The notes below the pieces were generated by a model. That model had not been told where the DNA came from and made no database searches. It was given only the letters and a program-made list of their open reading frames with translations. Made by a program: the position numbers and the translations under genes. Shown piece by piece: positions 50-12,991 of a DNA stretch of 12,991 nucleotides (the stretch's first letter is position 1; each line of letters starts with the position of its first letter). Source of the stretch: a virus; the UHGV virus genome UHGV-0043381. One strand, 5' to 3'.

Positions 50-634
50 CTATTCGATAATGGGTACTGTTGGCCATTCAATATCCGGTGCAGTTGTTGT
101 ATTAACACGGTTCAGCAACACCCGATATTTTTTCCAGGCTTCCAGCAATGAGGTTTCTTCCTCCGTTGCGATCTCCAGATCTACAGCATCCTGAAGTGGC
201 GCTATATGCTCACTGGCTACCTGCATCAGGCTGTTTTTTGTTTCTTCCGCCTCCCGGATCCGGAACAGTTTTTCTGCTTCCGTATCCTTCACCCAGGCTG
301 TGCCGTTCCACTTCTGATATTCCCCTTCCGGCGATAACCAGGTGACATTTTCCGGTAACGAGCCAAGTTCAGAAATAAATAACGCGTCGCCGGAAGCCAC
401 GTCATAGACGGTTTTTCCCCGATGATCTTCAACGAGATGCCACGATGCCTCATCACTGTTGAAAACAGCCACAAAGCCAGCCGGAATATCTGGCGGTGCA
501 ATATCGGTACTGTTTGCTGGCAGACCTGTATGAGGCGGAATATATGCGTCACCTTCACCAATAAATTCATTAGTTCCGGCCAGCAGATTATAAATTTTTA
601 TGGTCCGTGCTTGTTCACTCATTCTGAATGCCAT
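50..634 (-). CDS. tfa: Tail fiber assembly protein Tfa (lambda-type), 194 aa
   Basis: ORF-track protein [44 protein letters not shown]... matches my recollection of lambda Tfa along its whole length. ATG at 634-632 overlaps the TAA of the upstream frame (TAATG), as at lambda stf/tfa. Stop TAG at 52-50. Confidence 0.9.
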
Positions 635-2316: not shown

Positions 2317-2836
2317 TCAGCAACCCCGGTATCAGTTCATCCAGCGCGGCTGCTTTGTTCATGGCTTTGATGATATCCCGTTTCAGGAAATCAACATGTC
2401 GGTTTTCCAGTTCCGGAAAACGCCGCTGCACCGACAGGGGGATCCCGTCGAGAATACTGGCAATTTCACCTGCGATCCGCGACAGCACGAAAGTACAGAA
2501 TGCGGTTTCCACCACTTCAGCGGAGTCTCTGGCATTTTTCAGCTCCTGTGCGTCGGCCTGCGCACGCGTAAGTCGATGGCGTTCGTACTCAATAGTCCCT
2601 GGCTGGAGATCTGTCTCGCTGGCCTGCCGCAGTTCTTCAACTTCCCGGCGCAGCTTTTCGTTCTCAATTTCAGCATCCCTTTCGGCATACCATTTTATGA
2701 CGGCGGCAGAGTCATAAAGCACCTCATTACCCTTGCCACCGCCTCGCAGAACGGGCATTCCCTGTTCCTGCCAGTTCTGAATGGTACGGATACTCGCACC
2801 GAAAATGTCAGCCAGCTGCTTTTTGTTGACTTCCAT
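2291..2836 (-). CDS. nu1: Terminase small subunit Nu1 (lambda-type), 181 aa
   Basis: Protein [71 protein letters not shown]... matches lambda Nu1 end to end; ATG at 2836-2834 sits immediately next to cosB. Confidence 0.93.
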
Positions 2837-3040
2837 TGTTCATTCCACGGACAAAAACAGAGAAAGGAAACGACAGAGGCCAAAAAGCTCGCTTTCAGCA
2901 CCTGTCGCTTCCTTTCTTTTCAGAGGGTATTTTAAATAAAAACATTAAGTTACGACGAAGAAGAACGGAAACGCCTTAAACCGGAAAATTTTCATAAATA
3001 GCGAAAACCCGCGAGGTCGCCGCCCCGTAACCTGTCGGAT
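2837..3040. other. cos site: cosB with Nu1-binding R3/R2/R1 elements (about 2850-2975), cosN 12-nt cohesive-end sequence at 3014-3025, cosQ-side flank to about 3040
   Basis: 3014-3025 aggtcgccgccc is the reverse complement of the lambda left cohesive end GGGCGGCGACCT and is followed by cgtaacctgt, the reverse complement of the lambda right terminus ACAGGTTACG. R-site-like motifs are visible as reverse complements (gagaaaggaaacg, cgcttcctttct, gaagaagaacggaaacg). Orientation is reverse-complement relative to the lambda map. Confidence 0.85.
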
Positions 3041-3224
3041 CGCCGGAAAGGACCCGCAAAATGATAATAATTATCATCTGCATGTCACAACGTGCATCTA
3101 CGCCATCAAACCACGTCAAATAATCAATTATGACGCAGGTATCATATTAATTGATCTGCATCAACTTAACGTAAAAACAACTTCAGACAATACAAATCAG
3201 CGACACTGAATACGGGACAACCTC

Positions 3225-3458
3225 ATGTCAACGAAGAACAGAACCCGCAGAACAACAACCCGCAACATCCGCTTTCCTAACCAAATGATTGAACAAATTA
3301 ACATCGCTCTTGATCAAAAAGGGTCCGGGAATTTCTCAGCCTGGGTCATTGAAGCCTGCCGCCGGAGACTGTGCTCAGAAAAAAGAGTTTCTCCTGAAGC
3401 AAACAAAGAAAAGAGTGACATTACTGAATTGCTCAGAAAACAGATCAGACCAGATTGA
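3225..3458 (+). CDS. Small basic hypothetical protein, 77 aa, possibly DNA-binding (ribbon-helix-helix-like N-terminus); cos-proximal, AT-rich
   Basis: ATG at 3225, uninterrupted to 3458. Arg/Thr-rich N-terminus MSTKNRTRRTTTRNIRFPNQMIEQINIALDQKG... resembles RHH/Arc-type regulators, judged by eye only. Weak SD. A similar small ORF sits near cos in DLP12-type prophages, from memory. Confidence 0.5.
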   Translation: MSTKNRTRRTTTRNIRFPNQMIEQINIALDQKGSGNFSAWVIEACRRRLCSEKRVSPEANKEKSDITELLRKQIRPD

Positions 3459-3517
3459 AGCAATTTAGATAATCGTGCAGACTACGCCTCCCCTCATATC
3501 ACATGGAAGGTTTATCT

Positions 3518-3928
3518 ATGGATCAGGTAGTCATTTTTAAACAAATATTTGATAAAGTTCGAAACGATTTAAACTATCAATGGTTTTATTCTGAGCTAAA
3601 ACGTCACAATGTCTCACATTACATTTACTATTTAGCCACAGAGAATGTTCATATTGTATTAAAAAATGATAATACAGTGTTATTAAAGGGCCTAAAAAAC
3701 ATTGTGTCTGTCAAATTTTCAAAGGATAGGCATCTTATAGAAACGACCTCTAATAAGCTGAAATCCAGAGAGATCACATTTCAGGAATACAGAAGAAACC
3801 TTGCTAAAGCAGGAGTTTTTCGGTGGGTTACAAATATCCACGAACAAAAAAGATATTACTATACCTTTGATAATTCATTACTCTTTACTGAAAACATACA
3901 GAGCACATCACAAATGTTTCCACACTAA
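3518..3928 (+). CDS. ybcV: DUF1398-family protein (YbcV/YdfO-like), 136 aa from the SD-supported ATG
   Basis: Protein [58 protein letters not shown]... matches my recollection of the K-12 DLP12 YbcV family. SD ggaagg lies 7 nt before the ATG at 3518; the ORF track extends to an upstream ATG at 3503, which lacks an SD. Strongly AT-rich relative to flanking phage genes. Confidence 0.65.
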
Positions 3929-5565: not shown

Positions 5566-6059
5566 TGCTGCCCCCACAAACAGACTTCACGCTCAATCTC
5601 ACGGCGAGTCATCAGCCCTTTCCATTGCTTACCGCCAGCATATGTCCAGCGACGTAGCTGATCACATGCGCCTTTGATATCGCCCTGGTTTATTTTGCGA
5701 AGAAGCGTCGATGTTCTGAAATTGCCAGCACCCACGTTGTAAACGAATGAGTAAAGAGCGCCGCGCATTGTTTCCGGTATATCGACTTTGATGTACGGGT
5801 TAATTTGTCTGGCGACCGTGGCAAGGTCTTTATTCAAGAGTGTTTTGCATTCTGCTTTGGTATACGTTTTACCGAGCATGATGTCTTTTCCTGTATGCCC
5901 GTGACATACAGTCCATACACCAACAATATCTTTGTATGGTATGTAGCTGACACCTTCCAGACCATCGTTACCACTTGGGCCAGTAATTAACACTGATGCT
6001 ATAGCAATTGCTCCGCCACCAATAGCAGCAGCAACGGCTTTTCGTAATGATGGAGGCAT
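5562..6059 (-). CDS. R: SAR endolysin (phage 21 R-type lysozyme with N-terminal signal-anchor-release domain), 165 aa
   Basis: [59 protein letters not shown]... matches my recollection of R21/RrrD. Gly/Ala-rich SAR segment; catalytic E35, D44, T50 present by count. ATG at 6059-6057 overlaps the holin stop (TAATG). Confidence 0.9.
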
Positions 6060-6274
6060 TATTCACCTCTCGCAGCCTTGCGCTTATCTTCTTTAATCTT
6101 GAAATAAAGGTTTGTCAGGTACGTCAGCAGGCCAAATACCAGGCTACCCAGCACTCCAATTGCCGCCCACTGTGAGGGCGTGACTTTATCGAGCAGCTGT
6201 AAAAACCAGTAACCGGCACTACCTGCTGAGGTGCCATAGGCGACACCCGTTGTTAACTTATCCATGGATTTCAT
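6059..6274 (-). CDS. S: Class II holin (S21-type pinholin) with dual-start motif MKSMDK, 71 aa
   Basis: [71 protein letters not shown] matches the S21/EssD family. Two in-frame ATGs at 6274 and 6265 (holin/antiholin dual start); SD-like gaggtgggg upstream. The ORF-track start at 6319 is a TTG extension that I reject. Confidence 0.88.
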
Positions 6275-6699
6275 AACCCCACCTCGCAGACAAAGCGGGT
6301 GTAAATTGAGGGAATACAACGTATCGCAAAAAAGCAGAAACGTAACAGACTCGGAGTCAGTGAATAACTCAGGTATTGAGTTATCAGCTAATATCGAGAC
6401 TCAAAAAATGGAAAAACCAGCTCGACGGCGGGTTTAAGCTGTGTGACGAAGTAACCACTCTTAACAGCATAACCAATTTTTTACGTACGTAAACCACTGA
6501 ATGATATTTATGAGAATGCTACCGAGTGTTCAAAACTCCACCACAAATACATAAGAAAACCTTAACAAATAACCAATAAATAATTTCCAGCGTTATTTTT
6601 AGCCAATTTAAATTGAACCTTCAAATTATAGAGCACTTATAAATAACAGCCATTAATATAAATTGGCTAATAGATTTATTTTTATTCAGCCAAGAGCCA

Positions 6700-6863
6700 T
6701 GAATAGGATTCGATAGAAAAAAGTTCAGATAAAAATAGAGATCTACTTCACAAATTAAACGAGAAACTAAAACTTACATCTTGAAATAATCACATTGATT
6801 AGATGAATATTTATCGCGCAGTGACATCATTTTTTAATAATAGTTCAAAAAAAAGGGCTCACG
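6700..6863 (+). promoter_or_regulatory. Putative nmpC promoter with OmpR-box-like repeats (ttacatcttgaaataatcacat), weak -10, SD aaggg
   Basis: Sequence at about 6770-6800 resembles the ompC C1 OmpR site TTTACATTTTGAAACATCTAT from memory. TTGAAA at 6781-6786; AT-rich 540-bp leader; a 12-bp perfect palindrome caatttaaattg at 6604-6615 lies further upstream. Confidence 0.35.
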
Positions 6864-7946
6864 ATGAAAAAATTAACAGTGGCAATTTCTGCTGTAGCTG
6901 CATCAGTACTGATGGCGATGTCTGCTCAGGCAGCTGAAATTTATAATAAAGACAGTAACAAGCTGGATCTGTACGGGAAAGTTAATGCTAAGCACTACTT
7001 CTCCTCTAATGATGCAGATGATGGTGATACTACTTATGCCCGTCTTGGCTTCAAAGGTGAAACCCAAATCAACGATCAACTGACTGGTTTCGGTCAGTGG
7101 GAATATGAATTCAAAGGCAACCGCGCTGAATCTCAAGGTTCCTCCAAAGACAAAACCCGTCTTGCATTTGCAGGCCTGAAATTCGGTGACTACGGCTCAA
7201 TCGATTACGGCCGTAACTACGGTGTAGCATACGACATCGGTGCGTGGACTGACGTTCTGCCAGAATTCGGTGGCGATACCTGGACCCAAACAGATGTATT
7301 CATGACTGGTCGCACCACAGGTGTTGCAACTTATCGTAACAACGACTTCTTTGGTCTGGTTGATGGCCTGAACTTTGCAGCTCAGTATCAGGGCAAAAAT
7401 GACCGAAATGAAGTAACTGAAGCTAATGGCGATGGTTTCGGTTTCTCAACTACTTATGAGTATGAAGGATTCGGCGTGGGTGCAACCTATGCTAAATCTG
7501 ATCGCACTAATAATCAGGTTATCTACGGTAACAACGGTCTGAATGCTTCTGGTCAAAATGCTGAAGTATGGGCAGCTGGTCTGAAATATGATGCGAACAA
7601 CATCTATCTGGCCACCACCTATTCTGAAACCCAGAACATGACTGTTTTTGGTAATAACCATATTGCCAACAAAGCACAAAACTTCGAAGCTGTTGCACAA
7701 TATCAGTTCGACTTCGGCCTGCGTCCATCCGTTGCTTACCTGCATTCTAAAGGAAAAGACTTGGGTGTTTGGGGTGATCAGGACCTGGTTGAATATGTTG
7801 ATGTAGGTGCAACCTATTACTTCAACAAAAATATGTCCACTTTTGTTGACTACAAAATCAACCTGATTGATAAGAGCGATTTCACGAAAGCATCTGGCGT
7901 TGCTACCGATGATATCGTTGCTGTAGGTATGGTTTACCAGTTCTAA
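6864..7946 (+). CDS. nmpC: Outer-membrane general porin of the OmpC/OmpF family (NmpC/OmpD-type), intact, 360 aa
   Basis: Signal peptide [23 protein letters not shown] followed by [24 protein letters not shown]... and C-terminal ...VGMVYQF (terminal Phe typical of OM beta-barrels); matches my recollection of the DLP12 NmpC family. Not IS-interrupted, unlike the K-12 copy. Confidence 0.92.
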
Positions 7947-7961
7947 TTTGATTACTAAAAG

Positions 7962-8043
7962 ATATGTTGTGGGAGGCTTTGCCTCCCCAACATATAAGTG
8001 GCTCCCTCAAGCCACTTCCTTTAGAAGCACAACCTTGCTTCTA
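7962..8043. other. Cluster of three consecutive stem-loops between the nmpC stop and the Q stop
   Basis: Read directly: 7962-7995, about 15-bp stem with one bulged t (atatgttgtgggaggc / gcctccccaacatat); 7996-8017, 8-bp perfect stem (aagtggct / agccactt); 8023-8042, 6-bp stem (agaagc / gcttct). Confidence 0.5.
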
Positions 8044-8082
8044 ACTATACAAACCTTCTGTTATATATTACCCTTTATTTTT

Positions 8083-8110
8083 GGGGGCGTTTCAACGCCC
8101 CATTTTTAAT
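8083..8110 (+). terminator. Intrinsic terminator for nmpC (GC stem gggggcg/cgcccc plus T-run)
   Basis: Stem 8083-8089 / 8096-8101 with loop tttcaa, followed by atttttaat on the plus strand. A T-run also precedes the stem, but the minus-strand 3' side is A-rich, so termination is mainly plus-strand. Confidence 0.55.
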
Positions 8111-8134
8111 AACTTTTAGTAAATAATTGGCGTA

Positions 8135-8518
8135 TTAATTAGAGTTATTAACAACGATATCCATCTCTAACCGGATATCTAATGCCATTAACATCCCTTC
8201 AATTATGCCCTCAGCCTTCTGTAACCTTTTCCCGATATAACCATCAGAGCAGCAATGCTTACCTGCCAGTGACATGAATGTCATACCGACTACATAATAA
8301 TCTACTAATAAATCGTGCAAATCGCTGTTGTTCTTTTTCAGACGGGCCATGCACCCGCAAATGATCATAGCGTCATCGTCACAACATTGCGGGCGAGATT
8401 TTACTTTTGAAGTAATTAATCCCTTAAAACCGGCGGCAATGGACGACCAGGTCACATCTTCATGATTATTAGCCGCCCACGCTCCCCAACGCTCAAGAAC
8501 CATCTGAATATCACGCAT
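8135..8518 (-). CDS. Q: Late-gene antiterminator Q (phage 21/82-type, DLP12 QuuD-like), 127 aa
   Basis: [62 protein letters not shown]... matches my recollection of QuuD, with Cys-rich zinc-binding region. ATG at 8518-8516 has GGAG 7 nt upstream; the ORF-track start at 8533 is a TTG extension that I reject. Confidence 0.85.
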
Positions 8519-8603
8519 CAACTTACTCCACAAAAATCAGACCAGAACGCCAATTACAAGCAAAAATCAATAAAACAGTATTAGTTGATTGTTATCTCTG
8601 ACT

Positions 8604-8740: not shown

Positions 8741-9103
8741 TCATTCATTCCCCATTTCGGTGATGGTCAGTTCCAGCCTCCCACCTTTGGTAACAGGCAT
8801 CTTCACAACGCGGTAATCAACGACCTGAGCATCATCCAGCCAGAAACCTGCTTTAGTGAGTGCGTCAAAAGCGGCTTTTTGCAGATTATCCAGGTCACGG
8901 CGACGGCGATCCGGCATGTGGCACTCAATGCGGATTTTCACAGGCATAGTCAGGCCGATATCCAGCATTGCGTTTTTAATGATTCGGGCGACGTTATCGC
9001 GGTATGCCTGCCCCTCTGCGCTGACGTGCGTGCGCCCGCGATTATGGCGGTAATAGCGATTATTACTCGGAGGCCAGGGTAATGTGATGCTGTAGGTATT
9101 CAC
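8741..9103 (-). CDS. rusA: Holliday junction resolvase RusA, 120 aa
   Basis: [51 protein letters not shown]...[44 protein letters not shown]... matches E. coli RusA; GTG start at 9103 preceded by aagg. Confidence 0.93.
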
Positions 9104-9132
9104 GCCTTAATAACCCCCTCTTTCAGCCAGAT
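9104..9132 (-). pseudogene. 3'-terminal remnant (about 10 codons, ...[10 protein letters not shown]-stop) of a ybcO-like nin-region gene, abutting the deletion joint
   Basis: The minus-strand frame ending at 9100 encodes ...[12 protein letters not shown], which matches my recollection of the YbcO C-terminus, and its stop overlaps the rusA start. Further upstream that frame is merely antisense to bet, so the 72-aa track ORF 9100..9318 is a chimera. Confidence 0.45.
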
Positions 9133-9666
9133 ATCATCAATGAAAACCAGCAGTTTGATGGCATGGACTTTGAGCAGGACAATGAATCCTGCACATGCCG
9201 GATTTACCGCAAAGACCGCAATCATCCGATCTGCGTTACCGAGTGGATGGATGAATGCCGCCGCGAACCATTCAAAACCCGCGAAGGCAGAGAAATCACG
9301 GGGCCGTGGCAGTCGCATCCCAAACGGATGTTACGGCATAAAGCCATGATTCAGTGTGCCCGTCTCGCCTTCGGATTTGCTGGTATCTATGACAAGGATG
9401 AAGCCGAGCGCATTGTCGAAAATACCGCATACACTGCAGAACGTCAGCCGGAACGCGACATCACTCCGGTTAACGATGAAACCATGCAGGAGATTAACAC
9501 TCTGCTGATTGCCCTGGATAAAACATGGGATGACGACTTATTGCCGCTCTGTTCCCAGATATTTCGCCGCGACATTCGCGCATCGTCAGAACTGACACAG
9601 GCCGAAGCAGTGAAAGCTCTTGGATTCCTGAAACAGAAAGCCACTGAGCAGAAGGTGGCTGCATGA
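9133..9666 (+). pseudogene. bet: Lambda Bet (Red-beta recombinase), 5'-truncated; roughly the N-terminal 85 codons missing
   Basis: From about 9133 the frame reads IINENQQFDGMDFEQDNESCTCRIYRKDRNHPICVTEWMDECRREPFKTREGREITGPW...KATEQKVAA, colinear with the C-terminal two thirds of lambda Bet (261 aa) as I recall it. Upstream of about 9130 similarity stops and the frame closes at TGA 9085-9087. No start or promoter context. Confidence 0.85.
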
Positions 9667-10343
9667 CACCGGACATTATCCTGCAGCGTACCGGAATCGA
9701 CGTGAGAGCTGTCGAACAGGGGGATGATGCGTGGCACAAATTACGGCTCGGCGTCATCACCGCTTCAGAAGTTCACAATGTGATAGCAAAACCCCGCTCC
9801 GGAAAAAAGTGGCCTGACATGAAAATGTCCTACTTCCACACCCTGCTGGCTGAGGTTTGCACCGGTGTGGCTCCGGAAGTTAATGCTAAGGCGCTGGCAT
9901 GGGGAAAACAGTACGAGAACGACGCCAGAACTCTGTTTGAATTCACTTCCGGCGTGAATGTTACTGAATCCCCGATCATCTATCGCGACGAAAGTATGCG
10001 TACCGCCTGCTCTCCCGATGGTTTATGCAGTGACGGCAATGGCCTTGAGCTGAAATGCCCGTTTACCTCCCGGGATTTCATGAAGTTCCGGCTCGGTGGT
10101 TTCGAGGCCATAAAGTCGGCTTACATGGCCCAGGTGCAGTACAGCATGTGGGTGACACGAAAAGATGCCTGGTACTTTGCCAACTATGACCCGCGTATGA
10201 AGCGTGAAGGCCTGCATTATGTCGTGGTTGAGCGGGATGAAAAGTACATGGCGAATTTTGACGAGATGGTGCCGGAGTTCATCGAAAAAATGGACGTGGC
10301 ACTGGCTGAAATTGGTTTTGTATTTGGGGAGCAATGGCGATGA
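9663..10343 (+). CDS. exo: Lambda exonuclease (Red-alpha, Exo), intact, 226 aa
   Basis: [94 protein letters not shown]... matches lambda Exo at full length; ATG overlaps the bet stop (ATGA). Confidence 0.93.
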
Positions 10344-10750
10344 CGCATCCTCACGATAATATCCGGGTAGGCGCGATCACTTTCATCTACTCCGTTACCG
10401 TCACCGAGGCGTTAGAACTTGATACTGCCAAGAATGGTTACATCCTCCTGGTTCAGGACGCAGAGCCAAACTTCGATATAAATGGCAACTCTCCGGTAAC
10501 TCCGGATGGTTGGGTTATAGTGCCGAAGAAACTAACCGCTGAGAACGGCGCTAAGGGTGTGCTATCCGGTGAATTTTCAGAAACTACGTTTATAAGCTGC
10601 CCGGAATGCTTTGGTGATGATGATTGCGAAACTTGTGACGGCAGCGGAAGAATCGAAATCAAGGTTCCAGTCAGTTGGACAACTATCAAAACTATTTGGG
10701 CTAAAGGGTGTGAGTACTTTTCAATAGTAGCACCGCAGCAAGATGGGTGA
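10334..10750 (+). CDS. Hypothetical protein, 138 aa, with C-terminal CxxC-x5-CxxCxGxG zinc-ribbon-like motif; translationally coupled to exo
   Basis: ATG at 10334 preceded by gggga and overlapping the exo 3' end by 10 nt. Motif ...[21 protein letters not shown]..., where CxxCxGxG is the DnaJ cysteine-rich repeat signature. The N-terminus [19 protein letters not shown] may resemble the start of a lambda exo-adjacent small ORF, but I cannot confirm it. Confidence 0.6.
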
Positions 10751-10876
10751 TGAAAACAAGTATTTATAACTTAAAAGCATTAAAAAATCGCTTATAGATC
10801 AAAAGAAATCTACGTCAAATATTACTATATTTCAATGTGTTATAATTACCCCGTCCATAAAATGGGGGGACACAAA

Positions 10877-11119
10877 ATGTTCAAACGCTGCATCACCAAG
10901 TGTGGAAGCACACCTGACATCCAAGCTTTTATTAATGAAGATGGTAAGCTTGTTGTTGAGAGGAGTGGTCCTTTTATTAGCAAACAACTTATCATTACCT
11001 CTCCAGCGGAGATGGCCGGGGAATGGATAGTTTCTGAACCAGAGGAGTTGCACATCCCGCTTCCTTATGGCCCTCAGGGACTGATTTATAACCGTTATGT
11101 TCAGAAGGAGGCGGGTTGA
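10877..11119 (+). CDS. Hypothetical small protein, 80 aa from the SD-supported ATG (94 aa from ATG 10835)
   Basis: ORF-track frame 10835..11119. ATG at 10877 has gggggga 7 nt upstream; a perfect TATAAT at 10841-10846 in an AT-rich gap suggests its own promoter, in which case 10835 would be inside the leader. No family recognised (contains CITKC). Confidence 0.5.
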   Translation: MFKRCITKCGSTPDIQAFINEDGKLVVERSGPFISKQLIITSPAEMAGEWIVSEPEELHIPLPYGPQGLIYNRYVQKEAG

Positions 11120-11398
11120 CAATGTCAGGCATAACATCGCCGAGAAATCGAAAGAAAAACAGAACAAGGTAAACGTTGACCTTGCAGCATCAGGCATGGA
11201 GTACAGAGAGCGCCTTAACATACCTGTTATCACTGAGCAGGTATCATGAGAGCAACCTGAGCACTCACGCGAGTATTTCATGGAGCGCATCAGATACTAT
11301 CGCGAGCAGTCGTTAAACATGCCCAAGGGAAGCAACCCATGGTATATCGATATGGATGAACAGAACGCCAAGAAGTAAACGCAATTTGAACGAATGCG

Positions 11399-11426
11399 AA
11401 CCCGCCGAGTGCGGGTTTTCTTTTAT
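11399..11426 (+). terminator. Intrinsic terminator (7-bp stem aacccgc/gcgggtt, loop cgagt, T-run)
   Basis: Read directly at 11399-11417, followed by ttcttttatctg; about 20 nt after the stop of the small frame ending at 11378. Confidence 0.55.
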
Positions 11427-11624
11427 CTGAACTCGCTACGGCGAGTTTTGTTTTATGGCGATGATAAATGCACTTCCGAGTTACAGGTGAATAGAATGGA
11501 GAACCATTCAACAGAGTTATCGAAGCCGAGAACATCAGCGACTGCTATGACCACTGGATGCTGTGGGCGCAGATAGCACATGCAGACGTAACCAATATTC
11601 GAATTGAAGAACTGAAAGAACACC

Positions 11625-11652
11625 AAGCCGCCTGATGGCGGTTTTTTCTTGC
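11625..11652 (+). terminator. Intrinsic terminator 25 nt upstream of the xis start
   Basis: Stem aagccgcc (11625-11632) / ggcggttt (11637-11644) with one G-U pair, loop tgat, then a T-run tttttctt. Confidence 0.55.
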
Positions 11653-11674
11653 GTGTAATTGCGGAGACTTTGCG

Positions 11675-11893
11675 ATGTACTTGACACTTCAGGAGTGGAA
11701 CGCTCGCCAGCGACGCCCAAGAAGCCTTGAAACAGTTCGTCGATGGGTGCGCGAATGCAGGATATTCCCTCCTCCGGTTAAGGATGGAAGAGAATATCTG
11801 TTCCACGAATCAGCGGTAAAGGTTGACTTAAATCGACCAGTAACAGGTAGCCTTTTGAAGAGGATCAGAAATGGGAAGAAGGCGAAGTCATGA
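11675..11893 (+). CDS. xis: Excisionase Xis (lambda), 72 aa
   Basis: MYLTLQEWNARQRRPRSLETVRRWVRECRIFPPPVKDGREYLFHESAVKVDLNRPVTGSLLKRIRNGKKAKS is essentially lambda Xis; SD ggag 8 nt upstream; 3' end overlaps int as in lambda. Confidence 0.93.
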   Translation: MYLTLQEWNARQRRPRSLETVRRWVRECRIFPPPVKDGREYLFHESAVKVDLNRPVTGSLLKRIRNGKKAKS

Positions 11894-12941
11894 GCGCCGG
11901 GATTTACCCCCTAACCTTTATATAAGAAACAATGGATATTACTGCTACAGGGACCCAAGGACGGGTAAAGAGTTTGGATTAGGCCGAGACAGGCGAATCG
12001 CAATCACTGAAGCTATACAGGCCAACATTGAGTTATTTTCAGGACACAAACACAAGCCTCTGACAGCGAGAATCAACAGTGATAATTCCGTTACGTTACA
12101 TTCATGGCTTGATCGCTACGAAAAAATCCTGGCCAGCAGAGGAATCAAGCAGAAGACACTCATAAATTACATGAGCAAAATTAAAGCAATAAGGAGGGGT
12201 CTGCCTGATGCTCCACTTGAAGACATCACCACAAAAGAAATTGCGGCAATGCTCAATGGATACATAGACGAGGGCAAGGCGGCGTCAGCCAAGTTAATCA
12301 GATCAACACTGAGCGATGCATTCCGAGAGGCAATAGCTGAAGGCCATATAACAACAAACCCTGTCGCTGCCACTCGCGCAGCAAAATCAGAGGTAAGGAG
12401 ATCAAGACTTACGGCTGACGAATACCTGAAAATTTATCAAGCAGCAGAATCATCACCATGTTGGCTCAGACTTGCAATGGAACTGGCTGTTGTTACCGGG
12501 CAACGAGTTGGTGATTTATGCGAAATGAAGTGGTCTGATATCGTAGATGGATATCTTTATGTCGAGCAAAGCAAAACAGGCGTAAAAATTGCCATCCCAA
12601 CAGCATTGCATGTTGATGCCCTCGGAATATCAATGAAGGAAACACTTGATAAATGCAAAGAGATTCTTGGCGGAGAAACCATAATTGCATCTACTCGTCG
12701 CGAACCGCTTTCATCCGGCACAGTATCAAGGTATTTTATGCGCGCACGAAAAGCATCAGGTCTTTCCTTCGAAGGGGATCCGCCTACCTTTCACGAGTTG
12801 CGCAGTTTGTCTGCAAGACTCTATGAGAAGCAGATAAGCGATAAGTTTGCTCAACATCTTCTCGGGCATAAGTCGGACACCATGGCATCACAGTATCGTG
12901 ATGACAGAGGCAGGGAGTGGGACAAAATTGAAATCAAATAA
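11871..12941 (+). CDS. int: Tyrosine integrase Int (lambda), 356 aa
   Basis: MGRRRSHERRDLPPNLYIRNNGYYCYRDPRTGKEFGLGRDRRIAITEAIQANIELFSGHKHKPLTARINSDNS...HELRSLSARLYEKQISDKFAQHLLGHKSDTMASQYRDDRGREWDKIEIK matches lambda Int at full length, including the catalytic-region motifs. Confidence 0.95.
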   Translation: MGRRRSHERRDLPPNLYIRNNGYYCYRDPRTGKEFGLGRDRRIAITEAIQANIELFSGHKHKPLTARINSDNSVTLHSWLDRYEKILASRGIKQKTLINYMSKIKAIRRGLPDAPLEDITTKEIAAMLNGYIDEGKAASAKLIRSTLSDAFREAIAEGHITTNPVAATRAAKSEVRRSRLTADEYLKIYQAAESSPCWLRLAMELAVVTGQRVGDLCEMKWSDIVDGYLYVEQSKTGVKIAIPTALHVDALGISMKETLDKCKEILGGETIIASTRREPLSSGTVSRYFMRARKASGLSFEGDPPTFHELRSLSARLYEKQISDKFAQHLLGHKSDTMASQYRDDRGREWDKIEIK

Positions 12942-12991
12942 TGATTTTATTTTGACTGATAGTGACCTGTTCGTTGCAACAAATTGATAAG
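12942..12991. other. P' arm of a lambda-type attachment site (attP or prophage attL) with arm-type Int-binding sites; core lies just beyond the window
   Basis: aatgattttattttgactgatagtgacctgttcgttgcaacaaattgataag matches the lambda attP P' arm from memory. The reverse complement of 12953-12969 contains the arm-type motif AGGTCACTATCAGTCAA (P'2/P'3). The window ends before the core. Confidence 0.8.

Follow-up and report, generated by a model that had tools for sequence, protein, structure and literature searches.

In the window (the whole 12,991-nucleotide stretch of viral DNA that was analysed), the exo-xis interval extends from the exo stop codon (10341-10343) to the xis start (11675) and measures 1,331 bp (Table 1). 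As the original prediction held, it is shorter than its lambda counterpart of 2,269 bp, in which exo ends at 31348 and xis starts at 29078, and it differs in content. Lambda carries orf60a, orf63, orf61, orf73, ea22, ea8.5 and orf55 between these two genes. The left flank of the window (9133-10398), comprising truncated bet, exo and the first 65 nt of orf60a, is 97.2% identical to lambda by blastn, and the right flank with orf55, xis and int (11413-12991) is 98.5% identical; between them, 1,952 bp of lambda, from the rest of orf60a through ea8.5, give way to 1,015 bp of non-lambda DNA (10398-11412). The cysteine motif, the TATAAT, the 80/94-aa ORF and the terminators described from the letters alone are all present, and the exo-xis slot is indeed a mosaic accessory region, as expected of a variable lambdoid slot.

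Table 1. Features of the exo-xis interval and its borders in the window.
Feature	Position	Strand	Basis or remark
bet, 5'-truncated, upstream of exo	9163-9666		ORF list
exo, intact, 226 aa, left boundary	9663-10343	+	ORF list; lambda identity; RefSeq annotation of relatives
138-aa ORF, chimeric, overlapping the exo stop (ATGGCGATGA)	10334-10750	+	orf60a N-terminus and Ead/Ea22-family C-terminus
orf60a-derived segment, first 21 codons, native exo/orf60a overlap kept	10334-10398	+	alignment to L001 and lambda orf60a
Deletion/recombination junction	10387-10398	.	imperfect 12-nt microhomology, CTACTCCGTTAC versus CTATTTCGGTAC; perfect TAC at the crossover
Conserved C-terminal module, about 85 aa	10484-10735	+	beta-hairpin with four-Cys knuckle, then V.W..IK.IW and helix; alignments
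CxxC-x5-CxxCxGxG cluster, predicted loop at the beta-hairpin tip	10598-10648	+	aa 89-105; putative single structural Zn site
AT-rich intergenic region, travelling with orf80	10751-10876	+	27.8% GC
orf80, 80 aa	10877-11119	+	identical to RefSeq WP_000476264.1; phrog_9613, E 3e-50
DNA polymerase III theta (HolE / P1 Hot-like) pseudogene	11097-11378	+	PF06440
Tandem intrinsic-terminator-like hairpins, each followed by a T-run, just 3' of the theta stop	11398-11418, 11429-11448	+	terminator scan
Lambda-homologous segment (lambda 29079-29340)	11413-11674	+	95% identity to lambda
orf55 (lambdap35) pseudogene	11468-11635	+	phrog_676, 55/55 profile match, E 3e-38
Terminator-like hairpin just before xis	11625-11644	+	terminator scan
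xis, right boundary	11675-11893	+	xis and int together span 11675-12941
int, lambda-type	11871-12941	+	

From nt 10396 onward the interval aligns colinearly, at 99-100% identity, with prophages of 59 complete E. coli genomes, which cover 94-96% of the interval at 98.7-100% identity; colinearity of about 95% of the interval with known prophages is a point that the original prediction missed. Among the closest relatives are the attB-lambda prophages, adjacent to ybhC, of E. coli IAI1, STEC313, STEC316 and others, together with IMG/VR contigs such as IMGVR_UViG_2534681912_000009. Over 10387/10396-12991 these relatives are 99.7-100% identical and carry, in the same order, the Zn-knuckle module, orf80, theta with the same TGA, orf55, xis and int; IAI1 differs by an ISSen4 insertion between theta and orf55. 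The outcome that had been named as refuting the original reading, colinearity with a known phage, is essentially what was observed: prophages and IMG/VR contigs align over 10387/10396-11674 at 99.5-100%. No INPHARED record of an isolated phage reached at least 80% coverage, matches there being limited to the orf55 end, short pieces of the module and orf60a.

Unlike the window, these relatives keep gam, kil and the immunity region, and their exo is separated from the module gene by about 2.29 kb more, made up of orf60a, orf63, orf61, orf73/TraR, an ea22-like gene, a 251-aa ORF and a partial ORF. Their complete order is exo, orf60a, orf63, orf61, orf73 (TraR), ea22-like, 251-aa ORF, an Ea22-family fragment or gene with a Zn-knuckle end, orf80, theta, orf55 and xis. 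Against these near-identical prophages, the shortness of the interval reflects an illegitimate deletion of orf60a, orf63, orf61, orf73, the ea22-like gene and others, not an alternative gene set. Two blastn segments define the event: window 9133-10397 corresponds to positions 2443-3707 of the related prophage locus L001, and window 10387-12991 to positions 5992-8596 at 99.85% identity, so that the segments overlap at 10387-10397. A second locus, L016, matches the left side at 99.1% and the right side at 99.8% identity, and its two matching parts are separated by 2,292 bp. Illegitimate recombination at the 3-nt microhomology would have removed this segment and left orf60a running on from its codon 21, without a change of frame, into the Ea22-family gene at roughly codon 162. 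Because the left arm is 96.8-99.1% and the right arm 99.8-100% identical to relatives, the event may instead have been a recombination between two different prophages. Outside the window, the junction, defined by the 32-mer TTTCATCTACTCCGTTACCGTCACCGAGGCGT, turned up on a single 1.2-kb Logan contig; searches of 5,426 complete E. coli genomes, IMG/VR and the GTDB species representatives did not find it.

orf80, the theta pseudogene and their flanking signals

The predicted ORF of 80-94 aa is present (10835/10877-11119). Its 94-aa version would start at ATG 10835 (10835-11119). We rejected this start: the upstream ATG in L036, the locus of the only divergent orf80 homologue, stops after 7 codons, and both the position of the SD-like GGGGGG (10864-10869) and the RefSeq annotation favour 80 aa. 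Relatives of orf80 are few, with only 9 clusters among 5.8 billion proteins, and tblastn against 50,697 phage records returned no match. No Pfam or NCBIfam family was found for it. Judged by sequence comparison, orf80 is a real gene under purifying selection, because its dN/dS versus L036 is 0.19 and its upstream region is conserved, the gap remaining about 80% identical to that of L036 despite saturated synonymous sites.

The AT-rich gap does hold the perfect TATAAT that had been noted (10841-10846). The hexamer is preceded by TG, which makes TGTTATAAT (10838-10846) a candidate extended -10 element. By our estimate, about 0.26 lone TATAAT hexamers are expected by chance in 126 nt of such composition, and in a two-hexamer promoter scan of the gap on the + strand no site passed. 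Within the interval, orf80 alone would appear to have a plausible promoter region of its own.

The stretch between orf80 and xis had been described as about 550 bp with terminators. The terminators stood up, as three intrinsic-terminator-like hairpins on the + strand; the impression that little else lies there did not, since two pseudogenes, theta/Hot and orf55, occupy it. A terminator scan of 9000-12000 gave 10 sites on both strands, compared with 3.3 +/- 2.0 in shuffled sequences. The sole match in an Rfam scan for non-coding features was a sub-threshold rsmX driven by these terminators, and a search for direct and inverted repeats found none.

The theta pseudogene matches Pfam PF06440 with 98.9 bits (cutoff 34.6; E = 1.3e-28) and phrog_1105 (E = 1e-31), and shares about 70% identity with P1 Hot and with theta homologues of Klebsiella phages. 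Unlike these, the window copy is disrupted by an in-frame TGA at codon 51 (11247-11249), present in all 31 copies compared, and by what is probably the loss of 1 nt; both lesions are common to the copies examined, and RefSeq flags an "internal stop" in the theta of relatives. Comparison of the start region with Klebsiella phage 2b points to ATG 11122, 2 nt after the orf80 stop and preceded by the SD AAGGAGG (11105-11111), as the likely ancestral start, now out of frame through the probable 1-nt loss. Readthrough or selenocysteine insertion at the TGA was considered, given its fixation in all copies, and was rejected in view of the second lesion, the frameshift at the SD-preceded start. A scan for a theta variant with an intact start found none. 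The orf55 homologue is also nonsense-mutated, with TAG (11492-11494) replacing the TGG of lambda codon 9. The same TAG occurs in the relatives L001, L002 and L010, where RefSeq likewise records an "internal stop", and orf55 is intact in L004 and L008. We suggest that orf80 and the Hot-like theta gene were once a translationally coupled pair closed by the tandem terminators. Theta is now dead, through the frameshift and the TGA, and so is orf55, through the TAG.

One reading of this arrangement is that the non-lambda insert is a defence or exclusion moron, in which orf80, with or without theta, forms an autonomous cassette, driven from its own promoter and closed by terminators, to the benefit of the lysogen. 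The conserved AT-rich upstream region with its candidate -10 element, the tandem terminators, the selection on orf80 and the presence of the cassette on at least three prophage backbones fit such a role, as does the reported expression of P1 Hot in lysogens (Chikova & Schaaper 2007, via PMC7556043). Several results count against it. Defence-type content, which had been named as typical of such slots, was not borne out: PADLOC-DB v2 defence models gave no significant match to the encoded proteins and none at all to orf80, theta or orf55, the two marginal matches (E 0.009-0.024) lying on cysteine or coiled-coil stretches. Neither a protein family for orf80 nor a passing two-hexamer promoter was found, the theta partner is dead in every copy examined, and few E. 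coli genomes (91 of 5,426) have the cassette. We therefore regard a defence moron as unlikely. A secondary and improbable possibility, given the former coupling to a Hot-like theta, is that orf80 would act on the Pol III proofreading sub-assembly as a new partner or modulator.

The 138-aa reading frame and its origin

The predicted 138-aa ORF does overlap the end of exo, and its status as a native exo-coupled gene did not survive comparison: it is a fusion product whose coupling is inherited from the orf60a start, lambda having the same overlapping exo/orf60a start. Use of the second ATG (10340, ATGA overlap), the start used in lambda and in the RefSeq annotation of orf60a, would yield 136 aa. 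Residues 3-22 match profile positions 1-20 of the 60 positions of Pfam DUF1317 (PF07026; E = 7e-9); the full-length domain of about 60 aa is absent, and a three-way DNA alignment shows that similarity to orf60a ends with codon 21.

The rest of the ORF is read in the frame of an Ead/Ea22-family protein of 281 aa (L004:4509-5354) and corresponds to the last 117-120 residues of that protein, to which residues 19-138 of the ORF are 98% identical. The same residues are 98% identical to the 137-aa RefSeq protein WP_225343792.1 and to the C-terminus of a further Ea22-like protein, P0154, and the ORF matches phrog_60 (E = 5.5e-20). The 281-aa protein, the presumed donor of residues 22-138, matches PF13935 (Ead_Ea22) within its N-terminal 126 aa (aa 3-126; E = 4.7e-29) and has the coiled-coil sequence of lambda Ea22. 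The window's ORF, which keeps nothing upstream of aa ~162, lacks both the coiled coil and the Ead_Ea22 domain, a Pfam search giving no match to PF13935. The pro-lysogenic lambda Ea22 consists of an N-terminal domain, a coiled coil that assembles as a tetramer and a C-terminal domain that varies (PMC7093339, PMC10834534), and Ea22 proteins display a repertoire of unrelated C-terminal domains on the coiled-coil scaffold (PMC7093339, PMC8614690, PMC10834534). [quoted passage not shown] Taken at the level of DNA alignment, the 138-aa ORF is an accidental chimera created by the ~2.29-kb deletion.

The exact 138-aa protein was found on one other contig only, of 1.2 kb (Logan), among 153 billion gene positions. 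To the left of the interval, rusA (8741-9103, minus strand) abuts truncated bet, with lambda homology starting at 9133, and everything that lies between bet and rusA has been lost, the immunity region and the replication genes as well as pL and N. Genes of the left operon would consequently lack their native promoter and antitermination. With pL and N gone, the chimera is probably silent or weakly expressed, although read-through or fortuitous promoters may transcribe it.

The deletion might nonetheless have done no more than exchange the leader of an intact effector module, leaving a functional 138-aa protein under the efficient exo-coupled start of orf60a, for example in an Ea22-like pro-lysogenic or host-takeover role. 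Upstream exo is intact, and the fusion would keep the orf60a coupling and the complete module (aa 51 to ~130) in frame while losing the Ead_Ea22 N-domain and coiled coil. It could still be active, unrelated N-termini being tolerated naturally: the family has many of them, besides stand-alone forms. Apart from the loss of pL, N and the whole immunity region and the truncation of bet, this reading has to contend with the absence of the exact protein from all 5,426 complete E. coli genomes, with the decay of the adjoining genes and with the 1-in-3 chance that any such join falls in frame. An AF2 model of the full chimera was unusable (pLDDT 43), with its N-terminal half unstructured. We consider a functional 138-aa protein quite improbable, and favour the accidental chimera.

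The C-terminal module and its cysteine motif

The CxxC-x5-CxxCxGxG motif had been read correctly (Table 1). Its four cysteines show no variation among 48 close homologues and very little across the wider family; the motif is therefore not a chance pattern. Some wider-family members lack the cysteine cluster altogether, and the GxG is not kept in distant members. The invariant residues are those of the flanking LTAENGAK...GEF and V.W..IK.I segments, not the cysteines. An AF2 model of the module alone, built from a more diverse alignment, reached pLDDT 81 and predicted H26-30, E35-41, E59-65 and H68-84, with the cysteine cluster between the two strands. The model suggests a compact helix / beta-hairpin / helix domain with a putative structural four-Cys zinc knuckle at the hairpin tip. 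Pfam, NCBIfam and PDB sequence and profile searches with the module returned no family and no fold match.

The module occurs in 1,312 cluster-50 representatives (E<=1e-3), nearly always C-terminally, in proteins of 125-442 aa, and also in stand-alone forms of 76-90 aa. Its fusion partners include Ead_Ea22 and PF04447, the core is conserved and the N-termini are variable in the family alignment, and some of the proteins with the module have at their end the K/RGE tail known from Ea22. Position 10484, where the module begins, is a recurrent mosaic joint from which many loci share sequence only onward. This distribution suggests a C-terminal cassette carried by hundreds of different phage early accessory proteins, among them Ea22 scaffolds, DUF550/dATP-dGTP pyrophosphohydrolases and proteins with short leaders. 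Judged from its architecture and distribution, the module most likely acts as a host-protein-binding head and not as a chaperone. The joint claim that it is an undescribed host-targeting effector head shuffled by phages and that the orf60a::module fusion is still made and active strikes us as decidedly doubtful.

The likeness to the DnaJ cysteine-rich repeat signature held as a local resemblance, which also appears in the RefSeq/PGAP product name of the 137-aa relative, "molecular chaperone DnaJ"; identity with DnaJ failed every test. Like the DnaJ cysteine-rich domain (PF00684, 1EXK) and Anti-TRAP, the module has a local CxxC...CxxCxGxG at a predicted hairpin tip that would plausibly bind one zinc ion, and weak sub-threshold matches were seen to Anti-TRAP (PF15777; 11.6-13.2 bits, E 0.09-0.28, over 12 residues only, short of the gathering score of 32 bits), to GRXCR1/2_C and, in 1 of 37 family members, to DnaJ_CXXCXGXG. 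Unlike DnaJ, with four repeats and two Zn centres, the module has one CxxC and one CxxCxGxG and a single putative site. The J domain (PF00226) gave no match at E<=1 in the window's ORF or the 137-aa relative, PF00684 gave none at E<=1 in the window protein, and 1EXK appeared in the PDB profile search only at E 0.83. Given the missing J domain, the lack of any significant match in sequence or fold, a GxG that distant members do not keep and cysteines that are dispensable in some, a DnaJ-type zinc-finger chaperone or co-chaperone, or an anti-TRAP-like regulator, is exceedingly improbable.

A decayed accessory region and a widespread module

We conclude, with a probability of about 0.85, that the interval is a decayed, deletion-scarred remnant of the mosaic exo-xis accessory region of a cryptic lambda-like prophage that integrated by way of lambda-type int/xis. 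The accessory region itself is already known from dozens of E. coli lambda-like prophages, and in this respect the interval is ordinary. What looked like a novel DnaJ-like protein coupled to exo is to be corrected to a deletion chimera accompanied by pseudogenes in a decaying prophage, and is of little importance for the window. The Hot-like theta allele, with its two disabling lesions, has spread unaltered to no fewer than three prophage backbones, which illustrates how dead genes hitch-hike in mosaic modules. For the module family, the RefSeq name "molecular chaperone DnaJ" is misleading: the family is uncharacterised, very widespread and part of the Ea22 C-terminal repertoire, and it merits the definition of a domain and a structure.

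The exo–xis interval is a known mosaic region

The interval between exo and xis spans 1,331 bp, compared with 2,269 bp in lambda, and the features in the original prediction were all present: an ORF of 138 codons overlapping the exo stop (ATGGCGATGA), a CxxC-x5-CxxCxGxG motif at its residues 89–105, an AT-rich gap of 126 nt (27.8% GC) containing TATAAT, an ORF of 80 or 94 codons, and terminators, seen as three terminator-like hairpins on the + strand. A terminator scan of nt 9000–12000 returned 10 sites, against 3.3 ± 2.0 in shuffled sequences. Rfam gave nothing above the gathering score, and a repeat search found none.

The interpretation was only partly supported. The interval had been proposed to differ from that of lambda; a colinear alignment with a known phage, named beforehand as the refuting outcome, was essentially found, since nt ~10396–11674 are colinear at 98.7–100% identity with prophages (though not isolated phages) of 59 complete E. 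coli genomes, and also with many IMG/VR contigs. According to blastn, the non-lambda part is restricted to nt 10398–11412, both flanks being 97–98.5% lambda. PADLOC gave no meaningful match for any protein, and no evidence of a defence function was found. The interval is a known mosaic exo–xis region: 2.3 kb have gone from it, nonsense and frameshift mutations have built up, and the prophage around it lacks pL and N.

Features of the window (nt, + strand coordinates)
Feature	Position	Strand	Remark
tfa	50–634		order of window starts here
Terminase-large-subunit-like ORF joined to tail-fibre-like C-terminus	634–2316	minus	560 aa
nohD-like gene			
Lysis genes			
OmpC/NmpC-like porin gene	6864–7946		360 aa
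Q			
rusA	8741–9103	minus	
bet, 5'-truncated	9163–9666		C-terminal 167 aa only
exo	9663–10343		
Cys motif of 138-aa ORF	10598–10648		
TATAAT	10841–10846		
orf80	10877–11119		stop 11117–11119
theta pseudogene	11097–11378		in-frame TGA 11247–11249
SD AAGGAGG	11105–11111		
Terminator-like hairpins	11398–11418, 11429–11448, 11625–11644	+	
xis	11675–11893		
int	11871–12941		lambda-type

A deletion chimera carrying a widespread Cys-containing module

The 138-codon ORF is a chimera that arose by an accidental in-frame fusion. In Pfam, its residues 3–22 correspond to positions 1–20 of the 60-position DUF1317 (orf60a) profile (E = 7e-9), with no other significant match. A three-way alignment revealed that the window tracks orf60a up to ...TACTCCGTTAC and then jumps into the interior of a "molecular chaperone DnaJ" gene (RefSeq WP_225343792.1, 137 aa, from E. 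coli STEC313 and IAI1). Residues 19–138 are 98% identical to this protein and, equally, to the last 120 aa of an "ead/Ea22-like family protein" of strain SCZE5 (281 aa), whose N-terminal 126 aa match Pfam Ead_Ea22 (E = 4.7e-29), as does lambda Ea22. Using blastn against a locus of a relative (L001), we aligned window 9133–10397 to 2443–3707 and window 10387–12991 to 5992–8596 (99.85%). The best "parent", an IMG/VR contig, matches the left arm at 99.1% and the right arm at 99.8%, with the arms 2,292 bp apart; judging by the relatives, the missing DNA comprises the remainder of orf60a, orf63, orf61, orf73/TraR, an ea22-like gene, a 251-aa ORF and a partial ORF. The two arms meet within a 12-nt stretch of imperfect microhomology that includes a perfect TAC, a mark of illegitimate recombination. 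The overlap noted as translational coupling to exo is the native exo/orf60a one. The orf60a/module junction is rare: it is absent from all 5,426 complete E. coli genomes searched and was not found in IMG/VR or GTDB species representatives; the exact 138-aa protein appeared in one further contig of 1.2 kb (Logan ERR5917321).

Among homologues, the C-terminal ~85 aa form a highly conserved module, opening with (A)GNSPVxPDGWVxVP and closing with VPV.WTTIK.IW.KG, preceded by mutually unrelated N-terminal segments. An exhaustive HMMER scan identified 1,312 cluster-50 representatives (251 at E ≤ 1e-30), 125–442 aa long, in which the module is nearly always C-terminal; it is fused, among others, to Ead_Ea22 and to the dATP/dGTP pyrophosphohydrolase domain (DUF550). 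Pseudomonas, Vibrio and Serratia phages carry distant relatives, and others stand alone as proteins of 76–90 aa. Nt 10484 (codon 51, GNSPV) is a recurrent mosaic joint, at which homology to the window starts in many IMG/VR and E. coli loci. The GNSPVxPDGW linker is common to EaA, DUF551, DUF550 and Ea22-type genes.

The DnaJ repeat signature read in this protein holds as a motif, not as a relationship. The module belongs to no Pfam or NCBIfam family; the DnaJ_CXXCXGXG profile did not match the window protein, PDB 1EXK scored E = 0.83, Anti-TRAP fell far below threshold, and there is no J domain. The likeness to DnaJ is therefore local and the label superficial. PGAP nevertheless names WP_225343792.1 and its relatives (L001 5942–6355) "molecular chaperone DnaJ" without a J domain or significant DnaJ Cys-rich-domain match, likely an annotation artefact spreading via databases.

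In a diverse alignment, P..LT.ENGAK...F and W are invariant and IK.I nearly so; the GxG of the Cys motif is not conserved, and several members, P0145, P0150, P0152 and P0153 among them, have no Cys cluster. The AF2 model from this alignment was confident (pLDDT 81), comprising a short helix, a β-hairpin (E35–41, E59–65) and a long C-terminal helix, with the Cys cluster in the loop joining the hairpin strands. The cluster is probably a single, putative structural zinc knuckle at the hairpin tip. Ea22 proteins have been described as an N-domain and a tetrameric coiled coil bearing one of a varied set of mutually unrelated C-terminal domains, for which a role in host processes has been speculated (PMC7093339, PMC8614690, PMC10834534). 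The module fits among these C-terminal domains as a further example, and we infer a putative protein-binding head.

orf80 and two disrupted genes

The ORF downstream, annotated as WP_000476264.1 in relatives, matches phrog_9613 (function unassigned) and is rare, with no more than 9 clusters in 5.8 billion proteins and no tblastn match among 50,697 phage records. Compared with its lone divergent homologue, which sits in another prophage setting and shares 70% aa identity, it gave a dN/dS of 0.19 with saturated dS (1.44), indicating a real gene. The 94-aa form was rejected, its extension not being kept in this homologue. Upstream, ~115 nt of AT-rich sequence (window 10751–10876 versus 4873–5000 of the homologue's locus, L036) are ~80% conserved, including TGTTAT(AA/GC)T. 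Such conservation despite saturated synonymous sites suggests a candidate regulatory region, possibly a promoter or operator, moving with orf80; in the gap, a two-hexamer promoter scan passed 0 sites.

The final "550 bp with terminators" does contain them, but also holds theta and orf55 genes, both disrupted. The first matches DNA polymerase III theta (PF06440, E = 1.3e-28) and is ~70% identical to P1 Hot-like phage proteins. Its in-frame TGA recurred in 31/31 copies examined (7 E. coli, 24 IMG/VR), on at least three prophage backbones (lambda int beside ybhC, TorI beside dsdC, and P22-like int). An excellent SD within the orf80 3' end precedes ATG 11122, which lies 2 nt after the orf80 stop, is out of frame with theta and now opens a 16-codon ORF (MSGITSPRNRKKNRTR). 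A Klebsiella phage homologue begins ATG TCA CAG TGG AAC ATT, against ATG TCA GG- CAT AAC ATC in the window, pointing to a probable 1-nt loss after the ancestral theta ATG. Two lesions common to the copies mark theta as a true pseudogene that spreads by hitch-hiking in a mosaic module; 91 of the 5,426 E. coli genomes carry orf80 together with theta. With the SD and ATG 11122 so placed, orf80 and theta were formerly translationally coupled, a hint that orf80 may be functionally linked to a theta/Hot protein.

Tandem terminators lie directly 3' of the theta stop. Beyond them, nt 11413–11674 are lambda sequence (95% identity) containing an orf55 (lambdap35) homologue in which codon 9 has changed from TGG to TAG, a mutation common to IAI1 and STEC313 and absent in SCZE5. 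A terminator-like hairpin immediately precedes xis. In the IAI1 relative (L010 6735–7855), but not in the window, an inserted ISSen4 element (IS3-family) separates the theta pseudogene from orf55.

A cryptic lambda-like prophage

The window is a cryptic lambda-like prophage whose + strand is equivalent to the lambda leftward (pL) strand. Lambda left-operon homology begins only at nt 9133 (blastn), and the truncated bet directly adjoins rusA (window 9103–9163); therefore all between them is gone, namely gam, kil, cIII, N, pL, cI, cro, cII, O, P and most of nin. One large deletion removed this block, leaving a prophage without immunity or replication region.

In translation, the first ~500 aa of the 560-aa ORF resemble the lambda terminase large subunit and the last ~45 aa a side-tail-fibre C-terminus, with tfa next, suggesting that every head and tail gene was deleted and both ends were joined. 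The porin gene looks intact and is flanked by Q, the antiterminator, and the lysis cassette, an arrangement also seen in DLP12-type prophages.
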